Assembly: GCA_016867375.1 (NCBI GenBank)
Contig: VGJQ01000003.1
Span: 1-47,532 of the forward strand
DNA length: 47,532 bases
DNA from: Candidatus Kaiserbacteria bacterium
GTDB taxonomy: Bacteria > Patescibacteriota > Minisyncoccia > Phycocordibacterales > UBA2100
Direction of reading: 5' to 3'
Shown here: positions 10,245 to 44,099 of the stretch, piece after piece
Layout: each line of letters starts with the position of its first letter
How positions within the stretch are numbered: the stretch's first letter is position 1
The notes under the pieces: generated by a model
What the model was told of the DNA's origin: nothing
The model's database searches: none
The model's input: only the letters and a program-made list of their open reading frames with translations
Made by a program: the position numbers and the translations under genes

Positions 10245-10253
10245 CAAAATGCC

Positions 10254-10397: not shown

Positions 10398-10426
10398 GGA
10401 GTGCATATCAAAAAGACGTCACCTAT

Positions 10427-11071: not shown

Positions 11072-11168
11072 TATAAATTGAGGATGTGTGTGATGGGCAC
11101 ATGTGAAAAGGAAATTTTCAGTGGCTGACGAGCGTCAGCGTACTAGCGAAGTCGGACTTCACTTAGTA

Positions 11169-12005: not shown

Positions 12006-12119
12006 ATTATACTATTAGTTGAAAAGAGTATGTCTATTATACATTTTGTTGAATGCCGGTCAAGGGCGTGATTTTATGTTCCCGGACGAGAAGTCCTTAC
12101 TCGAAAAAAGGAGATGTCT

Positions 12120-12476: not shown

Positions 12477-12529
12477 CAGATTTAATGTGTGGTGGCGGAT
12501 TAACTCTCGCCACCACCATTTTCAACACT

Positions 12530-12922: not shown

Positions 12923-12963
12923 TGGATTGCATTGCCGCCATCCTTATAAAATAACCAAGAAGT

Positions 12964-13752: not shown

Positions 13753-13805
13753 CCACAAGAGGAAATGAAAAAGTGACACCTCCTTTTTACTGGTATGATG
13801 AATGT

Positions 13806-15618: not shown

Positions 15619-15682
15619 GGGAAATCTGGAGCAATCGAGCAAGAAGAAACGGCGGCGCAAAGATGTTACCTCGCCCATTTTA

Positions 15683-15745
15683 GGGCCCGTTCATAAATAA
15701 TTACCACTTTCTTGTACATAAGTATGATGTAGGGCATAATCGGGG
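15683..15745. mobile_element. degenerate or truncated copy of the MITE-like element
   Basis: The left end TA-gggcccgttcataaataa matches the left end at 40717-40737. The right end is not recognisable. Confidence 0.5.
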
Positions 15746-19624: not shown

Positions 19625-19625
19625 C
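19599..19625 (+). repeat. 27-nt exact direct repeat, copy 1 (3' end of nusG including the stop)
   Basis: aagccgaccaggtgcagagggtttgac, identical to 21528-21554. Confidence 0.95.
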
Positions 19626-19710
19626 GAAAGTTGTCTGTAAGGGTAACCTGACGATGGCTGATTTCGGCTACCCGGCGCTGGCGCCGGTTCACTGATGAAC
19701 GGAGACCGAT

Positions 19711-19992
19711 ATGACCCTAATGGTTCAAACTTCTGATGGAAATGGAGTTGAGGCACGATTTACCCACAGTTGCCCTACGTCTCTTATGTGTGATGGTGTG
19801 CAAATAGGGGACGTTGAGATTCCGCTCGAAGATTTTGTCGCGATGGCAGTGCACTTTCTTTCCGGCGGCTTCTTCGACTGGAATAATGGCGAAACTCCTT
19901 CCTCCGTAAATGAAGCACTCACTACGTTGTTTGCGCGATATTATTGGATCGACGGGAGATGGGTACTCAAAAAAGACGCCACTGTGTCATAG
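19711..19992 (+). CDS. hypothetical protein
   Basis: 93-aa ORF followed by a strong hairpin plus T-tract at about 20013-20057. Confidence 0.45.
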   Translation: MTLMVQTSDGNGVEARFTHSCPTSLMCDGVQIGDVEIPLEDFVAMAVHFLSGGFFDWNNGETPSSVNEALTTLFARYYWIDGRWVLKKDATVS

Positions 19993-20046
19993 CTGTTTCC
20001 TTGTTTAGTTAACCCCGACCCCGCAGTAACCATCTGTTAAGGGTCG

Positions 20047-20075
20047 GGGATTTTTCTTTGGTGAAATGGTGTAAT
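20047..20075 (+). promoter_or_regulatory. extended -10 promoter (TGGTGTAAT) within a 24-nt repeat
   Basis: gggatttttctttggtgaaatggt is identical to 20574-20597. The -10 ends 8 nt before the ATG at 20084. Confidence 0.5.
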
Positions 20076-20083
20076 GAGTGGGT

Positions 20084-20377
20084 ATGGGAGATATAGCAAT
20101 ATTGGTCGAAAAAGCGCGGCCGATCTTCAAAAAATACGGCTTTCGCAAGGTCGGTGTATTTGGGTCGCGTGCGCGGGGTGATAATCGCCCCGACAGCGAT
20201 GTTGATTTACTCTTTTCCGACAGCGGACATCCGCTTGGTTTTAGCCAACTTCTCGATGCTGAAGAAGAATTGAAGCAGGCACTGGGTGCAGAAGTCGATC
20301 TCGTGCCGGACACCACAGTCGTTGCGCGTATGCGGCCGGGGATTAAACACGATCTCAAGATTATTTATGAAGGATAG
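20084..20377 (+). CDS. mntA: MNT-type nucleotidyltransferase antitoxin
   Basis: GVFGSRARGDNRPDSDVDLL is a GSxxRGx(n)SDxD motif. Confidence 0.8.
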   Translation: MGDIAILVEKARPIFKKYGFRKVGVFGSRARGDNRPDSDVDLLFSDSGHPLGFSQLLDAEEELKQALGAEVDLVPDTTVVARMRPGIKHDLKIIYEG

Positions 20378-20495
20378 CAAGGTGTACGCCGATCTTATTA
20401 TCGCGGCGTGCAAAAAGGTCTCTGATTTTATCGCAGGATTCACGAAAGAAGACTTCATGCACATTCAACTTGAATGTCAAAAGTCTGACTTTTGA
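20367..20495 (+). pseudogene. HepT (DUF86/HEPN) toxin, N-terminal 42 codons only
   Basis: ATGA overlap with the MNT gene. MKDSKVYADLIIAACKKVSDFIAGFTKEDF looks like a DUF86 N-terminus, but it lacks the RNxxxH region. The stop lies inside palindrome P3. Confidence 0.65.
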
Positions 20496-20499
20496 CATT
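20473..20499. repeat. perfect 27-nt palindrome P3 (aatgtcaaaagtc-t-gacttttgacatt)
   Basis: 13-nt arms around a 1-nt centre, read directly. Confidence 0.95.
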
Positions 20500-20573
20500 G
20501 GGCTCTACAAGGCAGGGCAAACGCATTAAAAATATGCCTTGAAATCACAAGATATTTTCAATGATGCATTACA

Positions 20574-20602
20574 GGGATTTTTCTTTGGTGAAATGGTATA
20601 CT
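20574..20602 (+). promoter_or_regulatory. extended -10 promoter (TGGTATACT) within a 24-nt repeat
   Basis: Same 24-mer as 20047-20070. The -10 ends 6 nt before the ATG at 20609. Confidence 0.5.
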
Positions 20603-20608
20603 AGCTGC

Positions 20609-21016
20609 ATGGGACAAGGACTGGCTTTGACGCAGACACAACAAGACGAACTTCGAAAGCTCGGGACCGTTTTGTGCTATCTGCATGGTTCTGTTGCCAC
20701 TGGTAAGGCGGGGCGGGAGAGCGATGTTGATATCGCGGTACTCTTCGATCGTGCGCCGACGGATTTGGTGGGTACCACGACGGCCGTTGTCCGCGCACTG
20801 CAAGGTTTTGTGCCCGAGCGTGAGATGGATGTGGCGATCCTCAATCAAGCAACGCCGCTCTTGATGCAAACGGTCGCAGTCCATGGCAAGCTTCTTTTTG
20901 AACGATCGATCGGCGACGGACTTTTATTCCAGATCCGTGCAATGCATGAATACGAATCGTCGCGGCACATCGTCCGCATCGGACGTCGCCTTGCTCTCGC
21001 ACGTGCTGGCCTATGA
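20609..21016 (+). CDS. mntA: MNT-type nucleotidyltransferase antitoxin
   Basis: LHGSVATGKAGRESDVDIAVL motif. 4-nt overlap with the downstream HepT gene. Confidence 0.8.
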   Translation: MGQGLALTQTQQDELRKLGTVLCYLHGSVATGKAGRESDVDIAVLFDRAPTDLVGTTTAVVRALQGFVPEREMDVAILNQATPLLMQTVAVHGKLLFERSIGDGLLFQIRAMHEYESSRHIVRIGRRLALARAGL

Positions 21017-21432
21017 CTGACCTCGCACAAGAACTCATCGCCGAAAAGATTACAAAATGCGCCGGGGCGCTCGCGGATCTCAAGCGCTATCGAGAAGTCG
21101 GTACGCTTGAATACTTGCGCGCCACCCCCGATATATATTTTGCAGTATGTTATCGTTTTCTCACCGCCATCGAATCACTGTTTGATCTCGGACAGTTCAC
21201 CCTTGCCGATGTGGGCGTGCGCGCCGAGAGTCAGCGCGAGGTCCCGGTATTGCTCGCCAAACACACTATCATCACGGACGATCTCGCAGATCGATTTGTT
21301 CGGATGTACGGATTCCGCAATCGACTTGCGCACGGGTACGACTCCTTGAGCGATGAGAAGGTCGCTGAATACCTTGCAAAGCATCTGGACGACATTGAGT
21401 CACTGCTGACGGTTTTTCAAAAAGGTATGTAG
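21013..21432 (+). CDS. hepT: HepT (DUF86/HEPN) RNase toxin
   Basis: FRNRLAHGY matches the RNxxxHxY HEPN motif. Confidence 0.8.
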   Translation: MTDLAQELIAEKITKCAGALADLKRYREVGTLEYLRATPDIYFAVCYRFLTAIESLFDLGQFTLADVGVRAESQREVPVLLAKHTIITDDLADRFVRMYGFRNRLAHGYDSLSDEKVAEYLAKHLDDIESLLTVFQKGM

Positions 21433-21449
21433 TAGTAGCGAATATGTAC

Positions 21450-21480
21450 AAGCCAAGCGTCGCTTGGCTTTTTGTGTTTG
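21450..21480 (+). terminator. intrinsic terminator
   Basis: aagccaagc-gtc-gcttggctt followed by ttt. Confidence 0.65.
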
Positions 21481-21527
21481 TGGCATAATCTAAGGCGTAA
21501 TCCGTAAGGCGTCGCCTTACGGATTGT

Positions 21528-21554
21528 AAGCCGACCAGGTGCAGAGGGTTTGAC
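21528..21554 (+). repeat. 27-nt exact direct repeat, copy 2 (orphan nusG 3' end)
   Basis: Identical to 19599-19625. It is preceded by the 12-bp-stem hairpin at 21499-21525. Confidence 0.95.
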
Positions 21555-21618: not shown

Positions 21619-22227
21619 TTGTTGGACACGACATTCACGGAGCATGCGTTCAAGCGAGTGAGTGAGCGTCTTCATCTCTCGCCTGAGGAAGTCGCACAGC
21701 TTCTTAATGAGGACAAATATGTTCCTCTCGGGAAGGATGGTTCTTCCAAGAGAGTACATAAGCTGTTTTACAGCGAACCGGACTCATTCTGGTTTGTGGC
21801 GGTGCAGGATGAAGTGACTAAGGAAGTAGTTACGGTGTTGCCAGTCGATTATCACCATCGTTGGAAGGTTTCGGGTGATGCGCTGAGTTTCGCTCGCGCG
21901 AGGACTCGTGGCGAACAGATATCATTACCACACCCAATGCTTCCCGGACCAGAGACGGAGTCGGGGCCAGAGATGGTGACGCTTCGATTTTTGGGGCAGA
22001 TAATCAACCAGAAATGTAAGACACGTACCGTTGGTCTCGGTAGGATGCGGTATGAGTTGAGACATCTTGATCTGGTCAGTTATGACTCGGCGGTGCAGAA
22101 ATTTCTCAGGGACCAGCTTGAGGAAGTACCTTTCGTAGAAGGAGAATTTCTTGAGGAAATACATGCCTACTACGGAAAAGGCGGAAACAAAAAGTACATG
22201 AACCTTCAACTTAAAACGCTACTCTAG
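21619..22227 (+). CDS. hypothetical protein, N-terminal DUF4258-like region
   Basis: TFTEHAFKRVSERLHLSPEEV resembles the H-A-x-x-R..R-x-I-s motif of DUF4258-type toxins, from memory. A TTG start 5 nt after GGGGAGG is preferred over the GTG at 21595. Confidence 0.45.
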   Translation: MLDTTFTEHAFKRVSERLHLSPEEVAQLLNEDKYVPLGKDGSSKRVHKLFYSEPDSFWFVAVQDEVTKEVVTVLPVDYHHRWKVSGDALSFARARTRGEQISLPHPMLPGPETESGPEMVTLRFLGQIINQKCKTRTVGLGRMRYELRHLDLVSYDSAVQKFLRDQLEEVPFVEGEFLEEIHAYYGKGGNKKYMNLQLKTLL

Positions 22228-22304
22228 CTAGGGGGTAGCGTTTTTTCATACACAAGCGGTGGGCCCTTGAAATCCCCGGCCATTCCTGTATAGTGTCCCG
22301 ACAT

Positions 22305-22727
22305 ATGGCAAAAGAAGTCACCAAGATCATAAAGCTCCAGCTCCCAGCGGGGGCTGCCACGCCGGCTCCTCCGGTAGGTACCGCACTTGGCCCGGCGGGC
22401 GTCAATATCGCCGAATTCGTCAAGCAGTTCAATGATCAGACCCGCCCCCAGGCAGGCTCGATCCTCCCGGTCTTGATGCATGTGTACAAGGACCGCACGT
22501 TTACTTTTGTGGTCAAGAAGCCACCGGCGAGCCAGCTCGTACTCAAGGCCGCAGGTATCGAGAAGGGTTCGTCCAAGCCGCACAGTCAGAAAGTAGGCAA
22601 GATCACCAAGGTGCAAGTCGAAGCGATCGCCAAGGACAAGATGGAAGACATGAATGCTCACGATGTAGCACATGCCGCATCCGTCATCGCCGGTACTGCA
22701 CGCAGTATGGGCGTGGACGTGGTCTAG
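22305..22727 (+). CDS. rplK: ribosomal protein L11
   Basis: [26 protein letters not shown] signature. Confidence 0.9.
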
Positions 22728-22786
22728 ATTTGAATTTAAAAGAAAGAAAACGCCGAGTCGAGTGACCCGGCGTTTTTGATTTTTTA

Positions 22787-22844
22787 GAGCCCGTTCATAC
22801 GTGGCGTTCACAAAGAACGGGTACGTCATTTGTGGACGAGCCCT
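22787..22844. mobile_element. 58-bp internally deleted MITE-like element flanked by TA/TA
   Basis: Its ends gagcccgttcat... and ...atttgtggacgagccct match the 91-bp copy at 40719-40809. It appears to lack the segment between two aacggg repeats. Confidence 0.7.
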
Positions 22845-23947
22845 TAGACGCGTTCCGCGATCCGTACGTTGGTGTATTCGGGATCATCGGTGACTTCTTT
22901 GATCACCTTGATCCAGTCAGGGATTTTCACCTGAGTATTTTCCTCGGTGAGTTCCACCTCAAGCATGTAGAGCGTCTTTCCGCCTCGTATGGGGATCATG
23001 TCGTATTCCAGATACTGCCCCTCATACGGAAAACAAACCCGCGTTTTGCGTATGAGTTTCTTTGACGGATCACGTTGGGTGGCGAACAGTGTAGCATACT
23101 CACGTGCGCTGATGACGCGCTCAATCTCCTCGTTTTTGCCCGGACCAAGATATTTTTTGTCCGTCCGAAAGTAGAGAAAATTGGCACCATCCTGTCCTCG
23201 TTTGCGGATACGCGATGTGACCGCCGGATCAGATGAAAGTAGGTATGCTTGCTCGATCAGGATCATCTCATGCGGCATAGGCCAATGATTCGCTTCAACA
23301 TAGTGGCAGAGGAACTTACGTTCAATCTCAATTGGTACGGGAATACCAAGGAGTGCGTATATTTCGTGCTCCAGTCGCGCGAGTTTGCCGGCGAAGTCGG
23401 TCGAATTGTCGATCTCGCGCCAATGCGGCGCCCCGATCCAAACCCTTCGGGTCCGATCATCCAATTCCCGTGCCTGCGCGATGGTCTCACGTCTCGCCGC
23501 GTTGTTTGCAAGCGTGTAGTGTTGCTCTGCGCCGTTGGCGGCGGTCGTCAAATGGATGACGCCTTGATAGCCGTCCCGCGCCTCGACGTGGCTTCTGATC
23601 CCGTTTCTCCGCAGTGCTTGCAGGTATATTTTCACGTCATCGACGTATGCTTTGGATGTGGCTTTGCCGCGATCGCAGAACAGAACGGGTTTCAGCTTCG
23701 ATCGCGATTTCGCCGCGCGCAGCATGACATCCTCAAGATGTTTGGCTGTTCCGATGACCGCTGTCTGGAATTCGAGTGTCGGCCATGGTGCCGGCCATAT
23801 GTTGCCGTTCATGAGCAGTGTTGCCGCTTCGGGCACTACGATCGGATAGAACCCTTTCTGGGAAAGCTGTTCGACCATATGGGCGAGTGCGGTGGTCTTG
23901 CCTCCGCAAGGGCCGCCATCGAAACAGATTTTGGGTACGTGTATCAT
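22844..23947 (-). CDS. P-loop NTPase (AAA_28-like) fused to a CYTH domain
   Basis: N-terminal GGPCGGKTT Walker A. The C-terminal half begins with the EIERKFL ExExK CYTH signature. Confidence 0.65.
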   Translation of the reverse strand: MIHVPKICFDGGPCGGKTTALAHMVEQLSQKGFYPIVVPEAATLLMNGNIWPAPWPTLEFQTAVIGTAKHLEDVMLRAAKSRSKLKPVLFCDRGKATSKAYVDDVKIYLQALRRNGIRSHVEARDGYQGVIHLTTAANGAEQHYTLANNAARRETIAQARELDDRTRRVWIGAPHWREIDNSTDFAGKLARLEHEIYALLGIPVPIEIERKFLCHYVEANHWPMPHEMILIEQAYLLSSDPAVTSRIRKRGQDGANFLYFRTDKKYLGPGKNEEIERVISAREYATLFATQRDPSKKLIRKTRVCFPYEGQYLEYDMIPIRGGKTLYMLEVELTEENTQVKIPDWIKVIKEVTDDPEYTNVRIAERV

Positions 23948-29276: not shown

Positions 29277-29846
29277 ATGTACCAGAAGTACTGCACCGAA
29301 GCGATCGTGCTTAGTATGCGCGAATCAGGCGAGTCCGATCAGGCGCTCGCGCTCCTCACGCGTGACTTTGGCCTGGTGTGGGCCCGGGCAGGGGCGATGC
29401 GGCGCGAGTATTCCAAGATGCGCTATTCGCTTCAGCTATATGCACACGCATCTGTCTCGCTCGTGCGTGGCAAGGCGAACTGGCGCGCGGCGGGTGCGTC
29501 GTGCAGTACGCCGGCCTTGAGAGGGGAGAGTCTGCGCGCCTTTGCGCGCATCGCGCATCTTGTGGTGCGTTTGGTCGTCGGGGAAGAGCGTAGCGACTAC
29601 CTCTTCGAAGCAGTGTTGCAGGCACATGCTTCGCTTCTGCACGCAGGAGACGAGATGATTCCGACGATCGAGATCGTCGCGGTGGCGCGTATCCTCTTTG
29701 CACTCGGGTACATCTCTGCCGAAGCGCTCGAGACGACACTCTTCGCTCACACTGCGTACTCGTTTGATCACTTGCATGAGGCAGAGATGATCCGTGACAA
29801 TCTACTCATATCTATCAATCGTGCCCTTGCCGAAACGCACCTATAG
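29277..29846 (+). CDS. recO: DNA repair protein RecO
   Basis: N-terminal OB-fold pattern TEAIVLSMRESGESD..LLTRDFG. Confidence 0.7.
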   Translation: MYQKYCTEAIVLSMRESGESDQALALLTRDFGLVWARAGAMRREYSKMRYSLQLYAHASVSLVRGKANWRAAGASCSTPALRGESLRAFARIAHLVVRLVVGEERSDYLFEAVLQAHASLLHAGDEMIPTIEIVAVARILFALGYISAEALETTLFAHTAYSFDHLHEAEMIRDNLLISINRALAETHL

Positions 29847-29848
29847 TT

Positions 29849-31867
29849 TTGTGGTATTATTTTGGGATGGATCCGTCGGAAGTTCCCCAGATCGACCACG
29901 AGAAAGAAAAGATCGAGCGCCTGCGTCGGGTGATGTATTCACGCGCGCTCTCAGGCAAGATCAAAGACAAAGAGCGACGCGCGCTTGAAGAGCATCCCGA
30001 AATAGTCGGCGAAGACTGGGTGCATCCCGAAGACAGCACTCCTGCGGCGATCATTGCACCCCGTGGCATTACGTTTTTGCGCACATTTCTGCACGGACTA
30101 CTCATGGTGGCGGCACTCTTTTTCACCGGTTCGATCCTCTTTTTTGCATACTACTTTACCTTCGGTGCGGGCAGCTTGTCCGCGTCGGCCAACAACATCG
30201 ACATCATCGTATCCGGTCCGCCGCAGATATCTGGCGGAGAGCCGACGGAGCTCCAAGTCTCCATCACCAATCGCAATCGCGTGCCGCTCGAGCTCTCGCA
30301 GCTCATCGTCACCTATCCAGACGGTACACGCTCGGTGAGCGATCTCCTGACTCCGCTTGTGTCGGTACGGCAAGACCTACAGGTCATTCAATCGGGCGAG
30401 ACCAAACAGGGTGTTCTCAATGCTGTGTTTGCAGGCCAGGCAGGGGAGCACAAAGCGGTGAAAGTCGAGCTTGAGTATCGCTTGAGCGGATCAAATGCAA
30501 TCTTTGTTGCCGCGCGAGAATACAGCCTCCTCTTTGGTACCTCCCCGCTCTCTGTATCGGTCGACGGCAACACGTCGACCATTTCCGGACAGCCGGTCGA
30601 GATGATCGTCACCGTCTCATCAAATGCCGATGCGGCCGTGCGCGATGTGGTGCTTCGTGCCGACTATCCGTTTGGATTTTCGCTTACCTCCACGCAGCCA
30701 GAAGCGGACGAAGCAGGAGTGTGGAAGCTCGGTGATATCGGTCCGGGCCAAAAGAGGTCGGTCGTCATCGGCGGGACTATACTCGGGGAAATGGGTGATG
30801 ATAAAGTATTCAACTTCACTGCAGGTGGGCGGGCAAATTCTTCAAGTACGGCGATCGAGACGCAGTTTGCGGAAATGCCTTTCCGTATCGGAGTCGCTCA
30901 GCCGTTTTTGGGACTTTCTCTGAGTATCAATAGGTCCGCGACGACGAGCAGTATTCTCGCGCCGGGCGATGTCGCACAGGTGATTATCAGCTATACCAAC
31001 AATCTGCCCGGGCAAATCACCGATGCGGTCATCGTGGCGCGCTTGTCGGGTATTGAGATAGATGGGACGACGGTCCAGTCCGCCGACGGATTCTATCGAT
31101 CGACAGACAACGTCATGCTGTGGGATAAGAGTACGACCGATGGCAGATTGGCCGTTATCCCTTCAGGTGAACGAGGTGCGGTGACGTTTTCGTTCAAGAT
31201 TCCTGATTCTGCTACGCTTGCTAATACATCGAATCCCTTTATCGATATCAGCGTCAATGCGAAAGGAAATCGTATTTCAGATGCGGATGCACCTCAAAAT
31301 CTACAGGCAGCGACGATCGGGCATATCGCCGTGGCGAGCGATCTACAGCTCTCCGCCCAGGGTCTGTATTACCAAAATCCGTTCGGGACCGTCGGTCCGA
31401 TGCCTCCCAAGGCAGGACAGGAGACCAACTACGCGATTGTATTTACCATCAAAAATACGACCAACAGGATCACAAAAGCTAAGGTGACAGCGACCATCCC
31501 ACCCTATGTGCGTTGGCTTGGGAGCCATGCGCCCGCGCACGAATCCCTGGCGTTCAATCAAAACTCAAGCGTTTTCACCTGGGATGTGGGGGATATCGAG
31601 CCGGGGGTAGGGCTCAACGGATCAGTGCCACGGCAGATTGCCATTGCAATCGGTTTCAATCCCTCGACTTCTCAGATCGGCCAGCAACCAATCCTGCTTC
31701 AGGGGGTGACGTTGACCGGTATCGACGAGTCGACGGGCGGAAAAGTAGTGCGTACGACGCGGCCTGAGGTCACGACGGACTTGATACGTGTGTCGAAGTC
31801 TTCGGGGCAGGTGGTGGTAGGGACGGATAGTGGATTTAACCCCGATCATGCCGCAGTAGTGAAATAG
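29849..31867 (+). CDS. large membrane-anchored extracytoplasmic protein, hypothetical
   Basis: One TM segment near residue 90, then about 570 aa that are beta-rich and Thr/Ser/Gly-rich. An alternative start lies at 29867. Confidence 0.5.
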   Translation: MWYYFGMDPSEVPQIDHEKEKIERLRRVMYSRALSGKIKDKERRALEEHPEIVGEDWVHPEDSTPAAIIAPRGITFLRTFLHGLLMVAALFFTGSILFFAYYFTFGAGSLSASANNIDIIVSGPPQISGGEPTELQVSITNRNRVPLELSQLIVTYPDGTRSVSDLLTPLVSVRQDLQVIQSGETKQGVLNAVFAGQAGEHKAVKVELEYRLSGSNAIFVAAREYSLLFGTSPLSVSVDGNTSTISGQPVEMIVTVSSNADAAVRDVVLRADYPFGFSLTSTQPEADEAGVWKLGDIGPGQKRSVVIGGTILGEMGDDKVFNFTAGGRANSSSTAIETQFAEMPFRIGVAQPFLGLSLSINRSATTSSILAPGDVAQVIISYTNNLPGQITDAVIVARLSGIEIDGTTVQSADGFYRSTDNVMLWDKSTTDGRLAVIPSGERGAVTFSFKIPDSATLANTSNPFIDISVNAKGNRISDADAPQNLQAATIGHIAVASDLQLSAQGLYYQNPFGTVGPMPPKAGQETNYAIVFTIKNTTNRITKAKVTATIPPYVRWLGSHAPAHESLAFNQNSSVFTWDVGDIEPGVGLNGSVPRQIAIAIGFNPSTSQIGQQPILLQGVTLTGIDESTGGKVVRTTRPEVTTDLIRVSKSSGQVVVGTDSGFNPDHAAVVK

Positions 31868-31931: not shown

Positions 31932-33425
31932 ATGGCTGAAGTATCAATGGAAAAGATCATATCCCTCTGCAAACGCCGCGGATTCATATTTCAGGGGTCC
32001 GAAATATATGGCGGCCTTACCGGTACCTGGGACTATGGTCCGTACGGCATTGAGCTCAAGAACAACATCAAGAATCTTTGGTGGAGGATGTTTGTCCAAG
32101 GCCGCGACGACATGGTGGGTCTTGATGCGGCGATCTTGATGAATCCGCGCGCATGGGAAGCGAGTGGGCATGTGAGCGGCTTTTCTGATCCGCTCGTGGA
32201 TTGTAAAAAATGCGGGACTCGGCAACGAGCGGACGTTCTTATGGAGGATAAAAAGAGTTTGTTCCAAGAAAAAGTGAATGAGTATATGAACGAAGACGTT
32301 ACATATTCAAGGTCTAAAAAGACAGCTTTTATAGAATCATCTGGCATTCCTTACGAAAGAACAGATGTCGCACGTAAAGCCATTACAGAATATATTGGTC
32401 CGCTGGCTCAGCGTTTCCTAAACGAACATATTAATTGTCCAGCGTGTAATTCTCGGGCATGGGGTGAGCCACATAAATTCAATATGATGTTTAAAACATC
32501 TATTGGGGCCATTGATGATGGAAGTTCAATTTCATACCTTCGTCCAGAAACCGCAGGCGGCATCTTCGTCAATTTCAAAAACGTCGTCGATTCTGTACAT
32601 CCTAAGATGCCGTTTGGCATCGGGCAGATCGGCAAGGCATTTCGCAACGAGATCGCCCCGCGCGACTTTATCTTCCGTGTACGTGAGCTTGAGCAGATGG
32701 AGATCGAGTATTTCGTGAAGCCTTCGGATTGGGAGGGGAGTTTTGAGGAGTGGCGCCAGGAAGTCCATCATTTCATCGACGCGGTCGGCATCGACGAAAA
32801 AGCCGTCCATGAGCTGGAGGTGGCGCCCGAAGATCGCGCACACTACAGCAAGCGCACGATCGATTTCGAGTTCGATTTTCCGTTTGGCCGCAAAGAGCTT
32901 TTTGGCCTCGCATACCGCACCGACTTCGACCTCTCCGCACATGCCGGGGCATCGGGTGTGAAGCTTGAGATGCAGGGCGAGGAGGGGGAGAAGCCGTACA
33001 CGCCGCATGTTATCGAGCCGTCGTTTGGCGTCGATCGTACGGTGCTCGCAGTGCTTGCAAGCGTCTACACCGAAGACGAGCTTGGTGGCGAACCACGCAC
33101 CTATCTCAAGTTCAACAAAGCCGTGGCCCCCATCAAAGCCGCGGTCTTTCCACTCCTCAAAAACAAGCCCGAGCTCGTCGCCAAAGCGCGCGAGGTCTAC
33201 ACGATGCTCAAGCAGGAGGTGCCGCAGATCATGTGGGACGACAACGGCAACATCGGCAAGCGCTACCGCCGCCAAGACGAGATTGGCACGCCGGTCTGTA
33301 TCACGATCGACTTTGATACTTTGGGTGAGACTGCAGACTTTAAAGACACCGTCACCGTCCGCGACCGCGATACCGGAGAGCAACAGCGGGTGAAAATAGA
33401 GGATTTGACAAATATTATTAATTAG
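31932..33425 (+). CDS. glyQS: glycyl-tRNA synthetase (alpha2 type)
   Basis: RRGFIFQGSEIYGG, YLRPETAGGIFVNF, GIGQIGKAFRNEI class II motifs. The start is uncertain (31899, 31932 or 31947). Confidence 0.9.
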   Translation: MAEVSMEKIISLCKRRGFIFQGSEIYGGLTGTWDYGPYGIELKNNIKNLWWRMFVQGRDDMVGLDAAILMNPRAWEASGHVSGFSDPLVDCKKCGTRQRADVLMEDKKSLFQEKVNEYMNEDVTYSRSKKTAFIESSGIPYERTDVARKAITEYIGPLAQRFLNEHINCPACNSRAWGEPHKFNMMFKTSIGAIDDGSSISYLRPETAGGIFVNFKNVVDSVHPKMPFGIGQIGKAFRNEIAPRDFIFRVRELEQMEIEYFVKPSDWEGSFEEWRQEVHHFIDAVGIDEKAVHELEVAPEDRAHYSKRTIDFEFDFPFGRKELFGLAYRTDFDLSAHAGASGVKLEMQGEEGEKPYTPHVIEPSFGVDRTVLAVLASVYTEDELGGEPRTYLKFNKAVAPIKAAVFPLLKNKPELVAKAREVYTMLKQEVPQIMWDDNGNIGKRYRRQDEIGTPVCITIDFDTLGETADFKDTVTVRDRDTGEQQRVKIEDLTNIIN

Positions 33426-33471
33426 TTACTCTTTTGGCCAGCATCTCTGGCATCAACACAGGAGGTTATTA

Positions 33472-33654
33472 ATGGCGAATAATGATGCCAAAGGAGTTGC
33501 GCTCGTCGGTTATTGCTCGGACCATAGGGATGATCCCATCTGTGTTCGCCCAATTACCAATGCGGAGATTTTTGTTGCCCTTGGAGGTGTCCTATTAATA
33601 TTGCTCACCGCAATTGTTTCCGCGTACCCCCGTAAGCGTAAGCGATTCAGGTAA
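33472..33654 (+). CDS. small membrane-anchored protein
   Basis: 60-aa ORF with a C-terminal TM segment plus a basic tail. AT-rich. Confidence 0.4.
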   Translation: MANNDAKGVALVGYCSDHRDDPICVRPITNAEIFVALGGVLLILLTAIVSAYPRKRKRFR

Positions 33655-33661
33655 AGAAACG

Positions 33662-33697
33662 CCCTGCGCCACAATTCGGCGCGGGGTGAATTTTTGT
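33662..33697 (+). terminator. intrinsic terminator T1
   Basis: ccctgcgcc-acaattc-ggcgcgggg followed by tgaatttttgt. It closely resembles T2 at 34789-34827. Confidence 0.7.
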
Positions 33698-33735
33698 ACT
33701 TGCATACATTTGATTTATACGTATACTATATACTT

Positions 33736-33966
33736 ATGAATACCGTCACCTTTACGAGCACTATTTCCCCGAGTTTGATCGCGTGGCTGGATGCTGAGGC
33801 CAAGAAAGCGAAGCGCACGCGACGCGACATGCTTGAAGAAGCTTTGATCGCTTTTAAACGGGTAAAAATGCGTGAAGGGTTTGTGCGCGCTGCAAAAGAC
33901 GCAGATATTGTCGAGATGGCGGAGTGGGGTATGGATGAATATTCCAAGATGATCAATCGTCTATGA
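33736..33966 (+). CDS. ribbon-helix-helix (CopG-like) antitoxin
   Basis: VTFTSTISPSLIAWLDAEAKKAKRTRRDMLEEAL is an RHH pattern. ATGA overlap with mazF. Confidence 0.7.
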   Translation: MNTVTFTSTISPSLIAWLDAEAKKAKRTRRDMLEEALIAFKRVKMREGFVRAAKDADIVEMAEWGMDEYSKMINRL

Positions 33967-34301
33967 AAGTGCGCCAGGGGGAGATTTGGTACGCGCAATT
34001 GAATCCTGTAAAAGGAAGCGAACAGGGCGGTCGAAGGCCTGTGGTGATTATTTCAGGCAACACTATGAACGAAACACTTCCCGTCGTGATCGTTTGTTCG
34101 ATGTCGACCAAAATAAAAGAATATCCGGGATGTGTGATATTGCGAGCAAATAAAGGGACCGGTCTAAAACAAGATTCCGAGGTTGTCACGTTCCAAGTGC
34201 GCACGCTCGCGCATGCACGCCTAACCAAGAAAGTGGGCGTGGTCACAAGCGAAGAATTCCGTGCAATCCTACAAGGCTTGCAGGAAGTGTTGGTTCTATA
34301 A
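33963..34301 (+). CDS. mazF: MazF/PemK-family endoribonuclease toxin
   Basis: [28 protein letters not shown] is a hallmark PemK N-terminus. Confidence 0.85.
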
Positions 34302-34304
34302 TTT

Positions 34305-34479
34305 CCAAGTCGAGATCGGCACGCCCGTGTGCATCACGATCGACTTTGATACGCTCGGCGACCCTTCGATAGGCTCAGGGCAGGGAACCGGCCGCAAAGA
34401 CACGGTCACCGTCCGCAATCGCGATACGGGGGAGCAAAAAAGGGTAAGAGTGGGGGATTTGACTTCCTATCTCAAATAG
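34305..34479 (+). pseudogene. orphan diverged copy of the glyQS 3' end
   Basis: It translates to ..[44 protein letters not shown]. Compare the glyQS C-terminus [49 protein letters not shown]. Confidence 0.85.
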
Positions 34480-37857: not shown

Positions 37858-38115
37858 ATGCCATATATTCCACAGTCAGATCGAACAAAGTTCGACGATG
37901 CTATCACCACACTCAAGCCCGAAAAGGCGGGGGAGCTCAATTACATCATCAGTCGCCTCTGTGCCGACTACATCGCCCGCATGGGCAAGAAATATGCCAC
38001 TCTCAACGAAGTGATGGGCGTCCTCACGTGTGCCGCGTCCGAATTCTACCGCCGCCTTATCGCACCCTACGAAGATGAGAAGATCAAATCAAGCGGGGAT
38101 ATCGCAGGTTACTAA
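37858..38115 (+). CDS. conserved hypothetical 85-aa protein (intact paralog of 40528-40877)
   Basis: MPYIPQSDRTKFDD...LNYIISRLC...EFYRRLIAPYEDEKI. It starts 5 nt after the nudix stop. Confidence 0.6.
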   Translation: MPYIPQSDRTKFDDAITTLKPEKAGELNYIISRLCADYIARMGKKYATLNEVMGVLTCAASEFYRRLIAPYEDEKIKSSGDIAGY

Positions 38116-38847: not shown

Positions 38848-38880
38848 TAGAAACAGCCCGGCGTTCATACGTCGGGCTGT

Positions 38881-38931
38881 TCACTTTTGTTTCTTGGGTG
38901 CTTGTGGCGCGTTGCGGTCGAGACAGACGCG
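38881..38931 (-). pseudogene. orphan 3' end of a paralog of the 87-aa gene at 41673-41936
   Basis: The minus strand reads RVCLDRNAPQAPKKQK*, versus ACLDRNAPMRPKKQK* at the end of 41673-41936. It shares the adjacent terminator sequence. Confidence 0.75.
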
Positions 38932-38989
38932 TAAGGGCGCGCGCGTTTCTAACAAACCAGCTCTTCAGATATTTGTGTGGACCGCGCGG

Positions 38990-39418
38990 TCAATCGCTTT
39001 TCTTGAGATACTCCACGATGTGCCGCAGGTAATCTCGGTATTGGCCGATCTCGTGCGATATGTCGTCCACCATGCGAACGATATCCACTTTGCCGTAGCG
39101 ATGTACGACGAGATTGCGCAATCCGACGGAAGGCGCAATGCGTCGCGCGAAGTTGTCCGGCAACATACCGCGCTCACCGATCGTTGTGAATGTGCTTTGG
39201 TAATCATCGGGCGCAGGAAGATTCGAAGATGCGATGATGTGCGTGTTGATGTCGATGGCGCAGTCGACGATGAGTTGAAAGAGCCGCTCCACGGTGTGCA
39301 ATTTGAAATTGTCATGCACAATCTCGCGCGTGCCAAGGGCGAGTGTCGGTTCGAGTTCGGCGAGATATGCCTGCATGTCGGCCATCTTCGTTTCCACAAG
39401 ATTTTTGTCGAACGTCAT
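38990..39418 (-). CDS. hepT: HepT (DUF86/HEPN) RNase toxin
   Basis: GLRNLVVHRY RNxxxHxY motif. Confidence 0.8.
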   Translation of the reverse strand: MTFDKNLVETKMADMQAYLAELEPTLALGTREIVHDNFKLHTVERLFQLIVDCAIDINTHIIASSNLPAPDDYQSTFTTIGERGMLPDNFARRIAPSVGLRNLVVHRYGKVDIVRMVDDISHEIGQYRDYLRHIVEYLKKSD

Positions 39419-39825
39419 ACGGCGGGTGCGGCGAGGAACGCGTCAAGCGACGCGCGGCGCAAATCGCGCAACGGTTTTGTCTCCACGAATCGCTTGAAAG
39501 CATACATACCAAACCGAGCGAAAACATGCGGTTCGCGCTCGTAAAGAAGTATCCCTTCTGAGGCGTGTTTTTGCAAGAGGGGGGATGCGCTGCGTATGTC
39601 GACGACGTCCGTTTCTATACCGATGCGTTCTCCGATTTCGTACGCCATTTCCGCCAAATCGAGTGGCGAGAGCGGGCAATCGGCTTGCACAGCGATATCC
39701 GCATCGCTTCCCGCGTGTGTGCGCCCTGTCGCCTGCGAGCCGAATAACACAGCGAAAGATACCCCGTATCGGGGCGCGATCGTCTCTATTGCCGCGCGCG
39801 CCTCACTGATCTCAATCTGCTTCAT
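39415..39825 (-). CDS. mntA: MNT-type nucleotidyltransferase antitoxin
   Basis: LFGSQATGRTHAGSDADIAV. 4-nt overlap with hepT. The start is taken at MKQIEIS rather than the track start at 39912. Confidence 0.8.
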   Translation of the reverse strand: MKQIEISEARAAIETIAPRYGVSFAVLFGSQATGRTHAGSDADIAVQADCPLSPLDLAEMAYEIGERIGIETDVVDIRSASPLLQKHASEGILLYEREPHVFARFGMYAFKRFVETKPLRDLRRASLDAFLAAPAV

Positions 39826-39905
39826 GTAGACATTATACCATATCAACGGAAAAGTTATGCCGAACCAAAAGTTGACTTTTTCGTCAACAAAAGTACACTT
39901 TTGGT

Positions 39906-40187
39906 ATGGCAAAGATCACTGTCTCAGATTCCAATATTGGCCTCAAAGAGTTGCGCGACAATGTCGATACATACATCGCGGCCGTAAAAAAGGGTAAGAA
40001 GTTTACCGTCTACCGACATTCAAAGCCGGTGTTTGCCATCGTGCCTCCCGAGGAGGTCGAATACGACCTCGATGAGCTCGACGGTCCGGGATGGAAGACG
40101 TTGATTGATTTTACAAAGATTCGCAAGGGCGGGGTCCCGGCCGAAGAGGTGCTTGCTGCTATCGACCGTGTGTATGGACAGAGTTGA
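39906..40187 (+). CDS. Phd/YefM-like antitoxin
   Basis: LKELRDNVDTYIAAVKKGKKFTVYRHSKPVFAIVPPEE pattern. It overlaps the downstream toxin gene. Confidence 0.65.
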   Translation: MAKITVSDSNIGLKELRDNVDTYIAAVKKGKKFTVYRHSKPVFAIVPPEEVEYDLDELDGPGWKTLIDFTKIRKGGVPAEEVLAAIDRVYGQS

Positions 40188-40407
40188 AAAATTCATACGC
40201 AAAGTCGGTAAAGATCGTGCGCCCTCCGTCAGAGCGATTATCGCGAGGATAGTTGTAAACGATCTTGCAGGTTTGGATGTCCGAAAACTCAAAGGTAAGG
40301 ATTTTGAATATCGTATTCGTGTCGGCCGCATCCGCATCAAATTTGTTCGTAGTGCCTTGGGTAATAATGAGGTCATCGACATCACTTTCCGCGATAACAA
40401 CACGTAA
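40174..40407 (+). CDS. RelE/ParE-superfamily toxin
   Basis: 77 aa with LKGKDFEYRIRVGRIRIKF, matching the RelE-like L.G....yRiRvGdyRi motif. Confidence 0.65.
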   Translation: MDRVEKFIRKVGKDRAPSVRAIIARIVVNDLAGLDVRKLKGKDFEYRIRVGRIRIKFVRSALGNNEVIDITFRDNNT

Positions 40408-40412
40408 GGGTA

Positions 40413-40455
40413 TTAAAAGGCGACGCCTTTTAGGCAAAAAGGCGTCGCCTTTTTC
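40413..40455 (+). terminator. long inverted repeat / terminator
   Basis: aaaaggcgacgcctttt-aggc-aaaaaggcgtcgccttttt. Confidence 0.6.
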
Positions 40456-40527
40456 TCGCCCCCCTAACCCCTCTCGACTGCCCGACGCAAACATGCGTCG
40501 TGTCGCCTTTTAATATATAATCCTCAC

Positions 40528-40877
40528 ATGCCCTATATCCCACAGTCAGATCGTACAAAGTTCGACGATGCCATCACGGCGCTCAAGCCCGAAAAGACGG
40601 GGGAGCTCAATTACGTCATCAGTCGCCTCTGTGCCGACTACATCGCCCGTACGGGCACAGGGTACGCCAATCTCAACGAGGTGATGGGCGTCCTCACGTG
40701 TGCGTCGGTTGAGTTTTAGGTCCCGTTCATAAATAACTGCAACACAAAATGAACGGGCCCATAAGTGTAGTCCACAAATAACGGGTACGTTAATTTGTGG
40801 ACGAGCCCTTACCGCCGCGTGGTGGCCCCGTACGAAGATACAAAGATCGCATCCGATGGCGATATTAAGGGATATTG
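40528..40877 (+). pseudogene. paralog of 37858-38115 disrupted by a 91-bp insertion
   Basis: Collinear with the intact paralog up to ..SVEF, then TAG from the insertion. The remainder, YRRVVAPYEDTKIASDGDIKGY*, resumes after the element. Confidence 0.85.
40719..40809. mobile_element. 91-bp MITE-like element with TA target-site duplication
   Basis: TA at 40717-40718 and 40810-40811. Removing the element plus one TA restores gag ttt tac cgc cgc = EFYRR as in the paralog. Imperfect terminal inverted repeats and two internal hairpins (40722-40757 and 40770-40802). Confidence 0.8.
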
Positions 40878-40934
40878 AGATGATGCGGACTCTTGCATTT
40901 GTGCAAAAGATATAGTGTGATACAGTTTCGTCAT

Positions 40935-41156
40935 ATGGAACGAGAGTACACGGCAGTAATAAAAAAAGAGGGTTCATGGTACGTCGCGTGGCTTGAAGAG
41001 GTGCCAGGCGTCAATACGCAAGGTCGGACGCTCAAAGAAGTGCGCGAGAACTTGAAAGATGCGGCGATGTTGCTGTTTGAGGTCAATCGCAAGATCTCTC
41101 GCGCCCATGGCCGCGGAGTCATACACGAGCCGTTGCGCATCACGGTGGCGGCATGA
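40935..41156 (+). CDS. hicB: HicB-like antitoxin
   Basis: YTAVIKKEGSWYVAWLEEVPGVNTQGRTLKEVRENLKDA pattern. ATGA overlap with hicA. Confidence 0.7.
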   Translation: MEREYTAVIKKEGSWYVAWLEEVPGVNTQGRTLKEVRENLKDAAMLLFEVNRKISRAHGRGVIHEPLRITVAA

Positions 41157-41350
41157 AGCGGGCAAAACTGGTGGCATACCTCGAAGAAAAAGGATGCCTA
41201 CTCATTCGTGAGGGGGCGAAGCATTCGGTTTTTATAAACATGAATGCACAACTCTCCTCAACAGTCCCTCGACATCGCGAAATAAGAGACGCTCTTGCCG
41301 GTAAGATATGCAAAGATTTAGGTATTCCAAAAATCCGCCAAGGAAAATAA
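41153..41350 (+). CDS. hicA: HicA mRNA interferase toxin
   Basis: KLVAYLEEKGCLLIREGAKHSVF...VPRHREI pattern. Confidence 0.75.
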   Translation: MKRAKLVAYLEEKGCLLIREGAKHSVFINMNAQLSSTVPRHREIRDALAGKICKDLGIPKIRQGK

Positions 41351-41359
41351 ACAGCAATT

Positions 41360-41587
41360 ATGTCCTGGCATTTTGCACTTATAAATAAAAGGCTGGCGGA
41401 ATTCTTTTTCAAAAAGAAATGCGGTCGAATCATGCCGCAAGGTCATTGTTATATGACTCGCGAAAACTGTGACACAGCAGAAGAACAGAAGTGGATAGAT
41501 GAAGATATCAAAAAGCATAGTTTCACATACCGAAGTGGAAAATATCGGCATATCCCCACTGGAAAGATCTTTTCCAGGCACACTTGA
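41360..41587 (+). CDS. hypothetical 75-aa protein
   Basis: AT-rich ORF with no recognisable motif. Confidence 0.35.
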   Translation: MSWHFALINKRLAEFFFKKKCGRIMPQGHCYMTRENCDTAEEQKWIDEDIKKHSFTYRSGKYRHIPTGKIFSRHT

Positions 41588-41640
41588 TGGAACAGTTTCT
41601 CAAACAATGTATGAAAGAGTGGAAAGGTAACGACGTGTAG
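41587..41640 (+). pseudogene. orphan 3' end resembling the HD-hydrolase gene terminus
   Basis: MEQFLKQCMKEWKGNDV* versus the HD C-terminus EEFIRRFLREWDGK*. It is followed by the same terminator sequence as at 38850-38885. Confidence 0.5.
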
Positions 41641-41672
41641 AAACAGCCCGACGGATAGGTGCGTCGGGCTGT

Positions 41673-41936
41673 TCACTTTTGTTTCTTTGGCCTCATTGGC
41701 GCGTTGCGGTCGAGGCACGCACGTTCGACTTCGGGGAGGTGGCAAAATGTCTCTACTGCCTGCTCCTCCTGTCCTTCCGGCACGGCGACGCACAGCGGAG
41801 GGTAGTATCCGCCATAGGCATCGTGGATCACGGTGTATCCATACTGCTCGATGATAGCGACGGCCTGCCGGTATGAGACGCCGTCCCGAAAGATGACCAG
41901 GATGCGCCCTGGTAAGTATTCTGGATCGCGTGTCAT
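41673..41936 (-). CDS. hypothetical 87-aa protein
   Basis: ORF with its terminator. The 3' end is duplicated at 38881-38931. Confidence 0.5.
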   Translation of the reverse strand: MTRDPEYLPGRILVIFRDGVSYRQAVAIIEQYGYTVIHDAYGGYYPPLCVAVPEGQEEQAVETFCHLPEVERACLDRNAPMRPKKQK

Positions 41937-41994: not shown

Positions 41995-42825
41995 ATGAAA
42001 TACTTCGACGCACATACACATGTACAGTTTGCCGCTTATGATGTCGATCGTGCAGAGACTGTCGCGCGGGCGCTTGAGGCAGGAGTGGGGATGAATGTCG
42101 TGGGGACGCAGATCGATACTTCGCGTGCTGCGCTCGCGGTGGCGCAGCAGTACGATGGTGTGTGGGCGACGATCGGTCTGCACCCGGTACATACCAGTAA
42201 GTCATATCACGATACCAAAGAGCTCGGGGAAGGTGGGCAGGAGTTTACTTCGCGTGGCGAAGTGTTTGATTTTGCCGCGTACGAAGCGCTCGGCCGGGAC
42301 CCAAAAGTGATCGCCATCGGCGAGTGCGGGCTCGACTATTATCGCGTCGACGAAAGCACCAAGGCGATCCAGGTGGAGACCTTTGTGCAGCAGATTGAAT
42401 TGGCCAATGCACTCGGCAAGCCCCTCATGCTCCATATCCGCAACGGGGTGGGGGAGGCCAATGCCTATCTCAATGCACTTGAGCTCATCAAATCACATGC
42501 GAAGGTACAGGGTGATGTACACTTCTTCGCGGGGGATTGGGAGATCGCGCAGAAGTTTCTCGATAGTGGCTTCACACTCTCATTCACCGGTGTGGTCACG
42601 TTTACCCATGATTACGACGAGGTGGTGCGCAATACGCCACTCGACATGATCTTGTCTGAGACCGATGCTCCCTACATCACACCGGTGCCTTATCGCGGCA
42701 AGCGCAACGAATCGGCATACATTCCGCACATCGTCGAAGCAATCGCCCGGATTAAGAGTGAGGATATTGAGACAGTGCGCACACAACTGCTCGAAAATGC
42801 GCGGCGTGTGTTTGGTGTAACTTGA
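41995..42825 (+). CDS. tatD: TatD-family metal-dependent DNase/hydrolase
   Basis: FDAHTHVQF HxH start, GECGLDY, TDAPY motifs. The track start at 41833 is an upstream extension. Confidence 0.85.
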   Translation: MKYFDAHTHVQFAAYDVDRAETVARALEAGVGMNVVGTQIDTSRAALAVAQQYDGVWATIGLHPVHTSKSYHDTKELGEGGQEFTSRGEVFDFAAYEALGRDPKVIAIGECGLDYYRVDESTKAIQVETFVQQIELANALGKPLMLHIRNGVGEANAYLNALELIKSHAKVQGDVHFFAGDWEIAQKFLDSGFTLSFTGVVTFTHDYDEVVRNTPLDMILSETDAPYITPVPYRGKRNESAYIPHIVEAIARIKSEDIETVRTQLLENARRVFGVT

Positions 42826-42906
42826 CGTAGGGCTCTATTTATATTATTTTCACGTGAGGCTACACAACCTTTGGTCTCTTACAAAATACAACTTACGGAG
42901 GTAGCG

Positions 42907-43962
42907 GTGAAGACCTACATTCTCAATACGGGCGGAACGCTCGGGATGGTGGGTAAACCACTTCGTCCCGCGAAGTCCGCAAAGGAACTACTGGAGGGTA
43001 TTAATGTACCGTCTGGAATTGAGATTACGTTGGAAGACTTTCCACTTCGGCAAGATTCGACCAATGTGATGCACAAAGATCGCGTCCAAATGGGTGAGTT
43101 GATCGCCACAGTTTATGACGAGCATGATGCGTTCGTTGTTCTCCATGGCACCGACTCTCTCGCCGAGACGTGCGCGTTCTTCTCGATGCTGTTTAAGCTC
43201 TCACTCCAGAAACCTCTGTTCGTCATTGGTGCGCAGATGAGTAAGGACGAGAGCGGTACCGACGTACCGATGCAGATTGCAAACACGTTACGGGTAGCTG
43301 ATGCTTTCATCCATAACAATGTTGTGGGTGTGTACAGCGTTTGTATTGGCGATGTCCTTCACGGCGCAAGGGTGCGCAAGCGGCGCGATTCGGACTTCTC
43401 AGCGTTCTACACGCCGGGGATTTATCCCGTTGCTCAGGCATGGCCGCATGTGCTCATTCAGGAATGGGCACGAAAAAAGGATGGCGTTCTCGAAGTGCAG
43501 GGGCTACGCCTCGATTCGCAGTTCGAGCAACAGGTTGCGATCATAATTGTTTCTGCCGACAGCCCGCCCTACATTCTCATGGACATGGTGAAGGCAGGGA
43601 AAATCCGAGGCGTGGTTCTGGAGTGTAAAGGGGCGGGCAATGTTCCCGACCGTGTTTGGGACTTTGCTGACGAGGGTTCCTACTCGTGGATTGACGCGAT
43701 TCGTGCGGCTACACAAAAAGGAATTCACGTCGGAATCCTCTCACCGTTTGAGGACGGACGTGTCGAACTTGAGCGCTACGAACTCGGTCAGAAGGCGAAG
43801 GAGGCAGGGGCAATCAGTCTTGAGAGTCTCACCCCGGCGATGGGCGATGTGAAGCTTCGGCAAGCCATTGCCATGCATCCAGAACATCCTGACCGGATCC
43901 AGCGGTTCATCTCCACAAACATTCTCGGCGAACTCTTGCCGGGATTTGTGAACGAACGCTAA
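42907..43962 (+). CDS. L-asparaginase, type I-like
   Basis: NTGGTLGM and LHGTDSLAET motifs. GTG start 6 nt after GGAGG. Confidence 0.75.
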   Translation: MKTYILNTGGTLGMVGKPLRPAKSAKELLEGINVPSGIEITLEDFPLRQDSTNVMHKDRVQMGELIATVYDEHDAFVVLHGTDSLAETCAFFSMLFKLSLQKPLFVIGAQMSKDESGTDVPMQIANTLRVADAFIHNNVVGVYSVCIGDVLHGARVRKRRDSDFSAFYTPGIYPVAQAWPHVLIQEWARKKDGVLEVQGLRLDSQFEQQVAIIIVSADSPPYILMDMVKAGKIRGVVLECKGAGNVPDRVWDFADEGSYSWIDAIRAATQKGIHVGILSPFEDGRVELERYELGQKAKEAGAISLESLTPAMGDVKLRQAIAMHPEHPDRIQRFISTNILGELLPGFVNER

Positions 43963-43981
43963 TTGGTTTGCAATTCATTAA

Positions 43982-44020
43982 GGACTGGTTTAGGTATTCC
44001 CTAGGCCAGTCCGATTTTTT
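43982..44020 (+). terminator. intrinsic terminator
   Basis: ggactgg...ccagtcc followed by gatttttt. Confidence 0.65.
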
Positions 44021-44028
44021 ATCAAAAG

Positions 44029-44099
44029 GTGAGGATGTCGAGGTGGTGCGCACACAACTGCTCGAAAATGTCCGGCGTGTGTTTGCAGTTAGGATTTGA
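44029..44099 (+). pseudogene. orphan copy of the tatD 3' end
   Basis: GEDVEVVRTQLLENVRRVFAVRI* versus the tatD C-terminus SEDIETVRTQLLENARRVFGVT*. The core gtgcgcacacaactgctcgaaaatg is identical. Confidence 0.85.

Follow-up and report, generated by a model that had tools for sequence, protein, structure and literature searches.

A putative miniature inverted-repeat element interrupting one of two DUF6899 paralogs in a Candidatus Kaiserbacteria contig

Analysis of a 47,532-nt contig of Candidatus Kaiserbacteria (assembly GCA_016867375.1, contig VGJQ01000003.1; the whole contig is referred to as the window) provided evidence for the inactivation of a gene by a small mobile element. Positions 40719-40808 are very probably one copy of a non-autonomous cut-and-paste DNA transposon (MITE), whose family duplicates a 3-bp TWA target upon insertion. 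The contig has two DUF6899 paralogs, and the window copy would have entered a TTA inside codons 63-64 (TTT TAC) of one of them and created an immediate TAG, thereby severing the conserved YRRVVAPYED...GD tail and leaving a pseudogene. For its movement the element may have depended on a DDE transposase of the IS5 or PIF/Harbinger kind that is encoded elsewhere and acts in trans.

The interrupted DUF6899 gene and its surroundings

The features of the interrupted gene and of its paralog are as follows.

40528..40718, plus strand: disrupted DUF6899 gene, 5' part, codons 1-63 and the first two bases of codon 64
40716..40718, no strand: left copy of the target-site duplication (TSD), TTA; its TA and the first G of the element form the premature TAG at 40717-40719
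40719..40808, no strand: putative MITE, 90 bp, termini GG...CC, without coding capacity
40809..40811, no strand: right copy of the TSD, TTA
40812..40880, plus strand: disrupted DUF6899 gene, 3' part, from the last base of codon 64 to the TGA stop, with every family-invariant residue kept
37858..38115, plus strand: intact DUF6899 paralog (PF21840, E=2.3e-29, profile positions 1-85 of 85)

The open reading frame starting at 40528 terminates at the TAG after 63 codons, and its 63-aa product (P0003) was assigned to PF21840. In its gene context the insert reads gtt gag ttt TA/G GTCCCGTTCATAAATAACTGCAACACAAAATGAACGGGCCCATAAGTGTAGTCCACAAATAACGGGTACGTTAATTTGTGGACGAGCCC/TTA ccg ccg, where slashes mark the ends of the element. 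Deletion of 93 nt gives MPYIPQSDRTKFDDAITALKPEKTGELNYVISRLCADYIARTGTGYANLNEVMGVLTCASVEFYRRVVAPYEDTKIASDGDIKGY followed by a stop codon, an 85-aa protein that equals the intact paralog in length and stop position, and the empty site reconstructed in this way is GAGTTTTACCGCCGC. The restored reading frame and the paralog are 82% identical and both end in GDIxGY directly before the stop. At the target itself the disrupted copy has TTT TAC, which holds a TTA, whereas the intact paralog has TTC TAC without this triplet. The first-pass annotation had described an element caught inside a gene whose paralog shows the uninterrupted EFYRR, and the 93-nt deletion bears this out. Its remark that the downstream frame is preserved and yet a TAG follows at once is likewise correct.

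We then considered whether the insert is conserved in the genes of relatives. Across the insertion site the Pfam DUF6899 profile runs without a break, and with the restored protein as query we found 54 homologues of 79-128 aa, none of which has an insert at this site. They covered 95-100% of the query, with the exception of the window's own truncated 63-aa product (74%). An alignment of 16 homologues placed the insertion point between E62-F63 and Y64-R65-R66, where none has extra residues and where the most conserved block of the family, E(F/L)YRRVVAPYED.K...GD, opens. The pN/pS ratio between the paralogs was 0.24 overall, 0.21 upstream and 0.26 downstream of the insert, and the 22 downstream codons retain all ten family-invariant residues of that region, with no sign of decay. 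Because the ratio is alike on both sides and the invariant residues are kept, the insertion appears to be recent in comparison with the split of the paralogs.

As for the empty-site allele, no 85-aa protein identical to the restored sequence was among the homologues found, and exact look-ups of the intact and the truncated DUF6899 proteins in public assemblies returned no record. The filled site was recovered with the same right junction in two independent Logan assemblies (SRR7985589 and SRR16108666), both of which end in the loop of the second hairpin of the element at window position 40784. We saw no route to a full-length product, as the frame offers a single start codon beyond its last stop, a TTG that is buried in a hairpin stem and has no obvious ribosome-binding site. 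We regard the locus with good confidence as a pseudogene caused by a MITE insertion. The loss of this gene may be tolerable owing to the intact paralog.

A dense toxin-antitoxin cluster (38990-41350) lies between and just after both DUF6899 copies. It comprises HepT/MNT, a Phd-like antitoxin with its partner and a UPF0150 (HicB-like, weak hit)/HicA pair. The contig additionally contains dispersed duplications of 25-160 bp, spaced 0.5-3.5 kb apart (3288-4343, 10289-13894, 19599-21554, 33272-34463, 38870-41724 and 42758-44085). Three of them pair the 3' end of a gene with a downstream copy, namely NusG (100%), a class-II aaRS (81-84%) and TatD (88%), the last with an asparaginase gene between the 3' end and its copy; the two DUF6899 copies bracket the toxin-antitoxin island in a similar manner. 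These gene-end duplications look like scars of cassette insertion at gene ends. Elsewhere in the contig, a PIF1-like helicase (2807-4435) is seemingly fragmented: for the ORF 2807-3286 the match to PF05970 is confined to the N-terminal part of the profile, and short ORFs and a duplication of 144 bp within the region (3320-3463 and 4173-4316) come after it. A free-standing ORF with a LAGLIDADG domain (9463-10131, weak Pfam hits) is located between tRNA-Val (8791-8865) and tRNA-Leu (10163-10245).

The element and its relatives

Two hairpins and two further copies were located in the window.

40719..40760, no strand: hairpin 1, the left terminal inverted repeat (TIR; GGTCCCGTTCATAAATAA) paired with an internal inverted copy
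40770..40808, no strand: hairpin 2, running into the right TIR TTAATTTGTGGACGAGCCC (family consensus TTATTTGTGGACGAGCCC)
22787..22843, no strand: second copy, a short 57-bp variant with TTA at 22784-22786 and 22844-22846 (HMM E=6.5e-6)
15683..15700, no strand: solo left-end fragment GGGCCCGTTCATAAATAA with TTA before it, 73 nt upstream of tRNA-His

The stretch 40711-40820 reads gag ttt TA/G GTCCCGTTCAT...GTGGACGAGCCC/TTA ccgccgc. A family HMM built from the 90-nt class of other genomes, with the window copy left out, matched the element over its full length (E=8.4e-12, covering model positions 1-91 of 91). The TIRs of the window copy are imperfect, with 12 of the 16 first bases agreeing between its two ends, and its right end has one mismatch to the 18-mer that we used for the genome and metagenome scans. 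Both stem-loops reported in the first-pass annotation are present. Hairpin 1 has arms of 12 nt at 40719-40730 and 40749-40760 that are 92% complementary, and hairpin 2 has arms of 10 nt at 40770-40779 and 40793-40802 that are 100% complementary. The element folds better than shuffled sequence both as DNA (-25 kcal/mol, z=-3.96) and as RNA (-43.8 kcal/mol, z=-4.04). Read in the frame of the gene the insert contains four stop codons and it encloses no ORF; it can therefore not be a translated insertion. Rfam searches of the whole window at the gathering threshold returned only tRNAs, and a search of 40650-40880 at a permissive E-value gave a spurious miRNA match as best hit (E=6.8) and no intron, ribozyme or riboswitch.

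Further copies of the element exist both in the window and elsewhere. BLAST within the window revealed the short variant and the left-end fragment. The right TTA of the short variant (22844-22846) serves as the TAA stop of an AAA_28 gene on the minus strand, and directly beyond the other end of this copy is a terminator-like hairpin (22776-22747). A 201-aa ORF called in a public assembly (22224-22829) has its ATG inside this copy and is probably an over-extended gene call. The left-end fragment (15680-15700 including its TTA) has no right end and is either the remnant of a truncated copy or the target of a later rearrangement. The three window copies have CCCGTTCATA and the loop ACGGGTACGT, compared to CGTCCATA and ACGAGGACGT in the copies from other genomes, which suggests that the window copies form one lineage-specific subfamily that may have been amplified within the lineage.

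In a genome collection of 596 Gb, exact matches to the right-end 18-mer were found at six loci, five of them genuine elements, in Ca. Lloydbacteria (two), Ca. Staskawiczbacteria, a Patescibacteria MAG and a contig binned as Nitrospirota. In a metagenome collection, exact matches to the repeat 18-mer were found at 28 loci, about 17 of which were genuine. After removal of duplicate loci and chance coding matches, about 17 distinct elements of the family remained outside the window, from Patescibacteria genomes and groundwater metagenomes. The rejected hits (eleven metagenome matches, representing nine distinct sequences, and one genome match) were chance matches in coding sequence without TTA flanks, for example in the Walker B motif LFVDEP of an ABC-ATPase, which is encoded by TTATTTGTGGACGAGCCC. 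BLAST of the mini-element against the PLSDB plasmids gave no match, and three scans of viral contigs gave nothing other than one chance match in an AT-rich phage gene. With the exception of loci of the same strain (L001, L036 and L037), the element was the sole similarity between the window and the fetched loci; judged from these comparisons, a sole similarity of this kind between unrelated DNAs is what would be expected of a mobile element. The earlier view of a MITE-like, non-coding, TIR-bearing element with a target-site duplication is thus upheld, and the element proved in addition to be multi-copy. Both outcomes that would have refuted this view, a lack of further copies and an insert conserved in relatives, failed to appear. 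One apparent repeat end in L001 (GGGCTCGTCCGGAAATAC at 8350) was rejected, being a strain-specific RecO C-terminus without TTA flank. At the 3' end of RecO this same-strain public assembly (L001 8348-8403) departs from window 29843-29900, so that the C-terminus and the downstream sequence differ; this divergence is a strain-level rearrangement junction and not a MITE end.

Family members occur in sizes of 51, 90-91 (commonest), 98, 147-149, 159, 178-179 and 230-231 bp and share the TIR consensus GGGCTCGTCCACAAATAA of 18-20 bp, which the 179-bp element in L006 shows without mismatch over 18 bp at either end. Elements of the 90-nt class consist of two units linked by ACAAAG, in each of which the TIR pairs with an inverted copy of itself inside the element. 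This form looks like a head-to-tail pair of mini-elements of roughly 45 nt, and L005 180-230 corresponds to a monomer of the mini-element. In an alignment of 10 sequences 93% of the cells pair. Five pairs show changes on both sides, of which four belong to hairpin 1 with its 11 pairs, and the observed covariation score was reached by none of 500 shuffles. A compensated pair was also found between the orthologous insertions in L010 and L013 (GTTCAT/ATGAAC versus GTCCAT/ATGGAC). For this small sample of related sequences the changes are suggestive of a pairing that selection, or else conversion between the copies, has maintained. A simple TIR-transposon model would not call for such compensatory changes in the hairpins.

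Two other forms were noted among the fetched loci. A second MITE subfamily with the same left TIR (L010 9757 to about 9870 and L032 2523 to about 2645) has a long and conserved internal hairpin, CCAAAGGCnGCCTTTAAGAATCTTnCCCCAAAGGCnGCCTTTGG. The 178-179-bp subfamily (L006 7400-7578 and L024 646-823) has perfect or near-perfect TIRs and a partly palindromic core that is conserved between the two unrelated contigs and might fold as RNA.

Target duplication, mobilization and alternative explanations

The first-pass annotation had proposed a 91-bp element flanked by a duplicated TA, of Tc1/mariner/IS630 type. Comparison across the family instead gave a 90-bp element with GG...CC termini flanked by TTA. 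At the window locus the two boundary models excise the identical 93 nt and leave the same empty site; the length of the duplication can therefore not be distinguished from this locus by itself. The termini are GG...CC in every copy, and in 17 of 18 independent insertions the outer triplets are identical on both sides, 12 with TTA/TTA, four with TAA/TAA (L009, L017, L018 and L021) and one with TAT/TAT (L005 7270-7418). The lone discordant flank, GAA/TAA, is a single event present in two related contigs (L010 and L013). No insertion combines TTA on one side with TAA on the other (Fisher P about 5e-4 for TTA/TAA co-variation). A 3-bp model needs no extra base and puts both terminal repeats in register. 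The family thus duplicates a 3-bp TWA next to fixed GG...CC ends rather than a TA, and with this the assignment to Tc1/mariner/IS630 loses its support.

A DDE cut-and-paste transposase acting in trans would follow from the TIRs together with a duplication of fixed length. Duplications of 3 bp are made by canonical Harbinger elements, which have the IS5 family among their relatives (PMC12730594). From the length of the duplication, its target and the GG termini we somewhat favor an IS5/Harbinger-type mobilization. A 3-bp TWA duplication together with GG termini is typical of PIF/Harbinger and of the IS5-family groups IS1031, ISL2 and IS427, and not of IS630.

As stated in the first-pass annotation, the window encodes no transposase: a Pfam search of its 38 ORFs (47.5 kb, the whole contig) found none. 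Neither the window, the 38 fetched loci (about 300 kb) nor the exact-match hits of both collections contained an autonomous element with the same repeats, and no pair of TIRs lying 0.3-4 kb apart in any of the loci encloses a transposase, such pairs belonging only to separate MITEs. A search for the Y-2-R-3-E-6-K motif in 451 open frames (150 aa or longer, from window and loci with about 350 kb in total) gave a single match, at the extreme N-terminus of a 175-aa frame of the window. Three candidates were inspected manually and dismissed. L006 5599 is a chance match in a 779-aa coding ORF (tRNA-synthetase subunit-like by eye), L010 9757 belongs to another MITE subfamily, and the candidate in L018 is a MITE overlapping the end of a gene. 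An 812-bp interval between repeats in L032 holds a 172-aa ORF that is membrane-protein-like by eye.

For a Tc1/mariner/IS630-derived MITE of 91 bp with a TA duplication, the flanks TA...TA at the window locus fit as well as TTA...TTA and imply the same empty site, IS630/Tc1-mariner elements do duplicate TA, and bacteria are well known to carry MITEs derived from IS630, for example RUP. Applied to the family, however, this model requires an extra base at the left end in the TAA and TAT copies (L009, L017, L018, L021 and L005b) and at the right end in the TTA copies, and no transposase of the IS630 type was seen in the window or the fetched loci, which makes this origin very improbable. The two subterminal hairpins, which are of similar sequence and in direct orientation and whose pairing is kept by compensatory changes, recall the ends of IS200/IS605 elements. 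They would suit a palindrome-associated or REP-like single-strand element that inserts 3' of a TTA without duplication, the right-hand TTA then belonging to the element. The left and right triplets co-vary (TTA/TTA, TAA/TAA, TAT/TAT), as expected of a duplication and not of a fixed element end, and both TTA and TAA occur for one fixed orientation of the element. Given also the true TIRs of family members, perfect over 18 bp in L006, and window and loci in which no TnpA or TnpB gene was seen, we consider a single-strand element highly improbable.

A further alternative concerns the gene and not the element, namely that the insert is removed or skipped, by a bypass as in gene 60, as an intron-like RNA or as an in-frame insertion like an RPE, and that the gene is still functional. 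The length of 93 nt is a multiple of three, the codons downstream are undamaged, and a stop and a hairpin directly after the last sense codon resemble the take-off site of T4 gene 60. The take-off codon would be UUU, however, without a matching landing codon, since CCU precedes UAC; the insert contains four in-frame stops, and the Rfam searches, which included introns and ribozymes, gave no match. The same element is moreover found elsewhere in 3' UTRs and intergenic DNA in both orientations, and a recent insertion accounts equally well for undamaged codons downstream. A functional gene is thus extremely improbable, and the insertion of a TWA-duplicating MITE remains the preferred reading.

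Association with stop codons and comparison with known repeats

The duplicated triplet coincides or overlaps with a stop codon, that of an ORF with 90 aa or more, in 12 of 20 copies, compared to a background of 6.4% of the TTA/TAA triplets in the same loci that touch such a stop (binomial P about 4e-10). Either the triplet is itself a TAA stop, or TTA and the first G of the element form or preserve a TAG. Owing to the duplication of the triplet the stop of the gene is retained and the element is turned into 3' UTR, as in the second window copy with its AAA_28 gene. At L002 6075-6077 and L035 1567-1569 the TAG stop consists of the TA of the TSD and the first G of the element, and at L018 1660-1756 a 294-aa ORF takes its final residues and its stop from the element. 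The orientation of the element relative to the gene is mixed, which argues against a strand-specific role as RNA. The mixed orientation agrees with survivorship in gene-dense genomes no less than with active targeting. Since most copies of the family sit on stop codons, the window copy inside a gene (40719-40808) is atypical and an exception within the family.

The family shows similarities to several groups of known repeats. With Tourist-type MITEs of PIF/Harbinger and with the IS5 family (IS1031, ISL2, IS427) it shares the 3-bp TWA (TTA/TAA) duplication, and with Tourist-type MITEs also termini starting with GG or GA, short TIRs, a length below 250 bp and the lack of an ORF. It is unlike these in its CPR/Patescibacteria hosts, in the double hairpin made of four copies of the repeat and in the location of most copies on stop codons. 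The RUP elements of Streptococcus pneumoniae (IS630/Tc1-mariner-derived) and the Correia elements of Neisseria are likewise non-coding repeats of around 100 bp with TIRs and are co-transcribed with neighboring genes; these duplicate TA, in contrast to the 3 bp found here. Rickettsia palindromic elements (RPEs), which are found within protein-coding genes and have a length that is a multiple of three, resemble the window copy as small palindromic repeats inside a protein gene. RPEs are open and translated within the protein, whereas the four in-frame stops of the present insert truncate it. Hairpin pairing conserved through compensatory change is shared with IS200/IS605-derived palindrome-associated elements and with REP/BIME, which have neither TIRs nor a TSD, both of which are present here.

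Literature searches on the repeat sequence, on MITEs in CPR and on IS families in Patescibacteria found nothing relevant, and this MITE family of groundwater CPR bacteria is apparently undescribed. The knock-out of a gene by a MITE is a known kind of event. The present locus would be a clean and internally controlled case of it, with the filled site and the paralogous uninterrupted site within 3 kb. For annotation and assembly, the family fragments short-read assemblies and causes false gene starts and changed C-termini (window 22224-22829 and L018), and through its stop-codon habit the same hairpins are placed in the 3' UTRs of many CPR genes. The association with stop codons, the maintained double hairpin and the lack of a partner among the sequences searched are for now observations at the level of the family. 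That the repeats are structurally constrained, CPR-wide double hairpins riding on stop codons and more than inert MITEs seems doubtful to us. If true, such a reading would point to a hairpin-dependent transposition chemistry, or to a use of the elements by the host as RNA or DNA structures in 3' UTRs, comparable to REP or Correia elements, and this in genomes that are regarded as poor in mobile DNA. An autonomous partner, if found, would document active DNA transposition in reduced genomes, and the element described here offers a first handle on a MITE family that appears to be common to several lineages of groundwater Patescibacteria.
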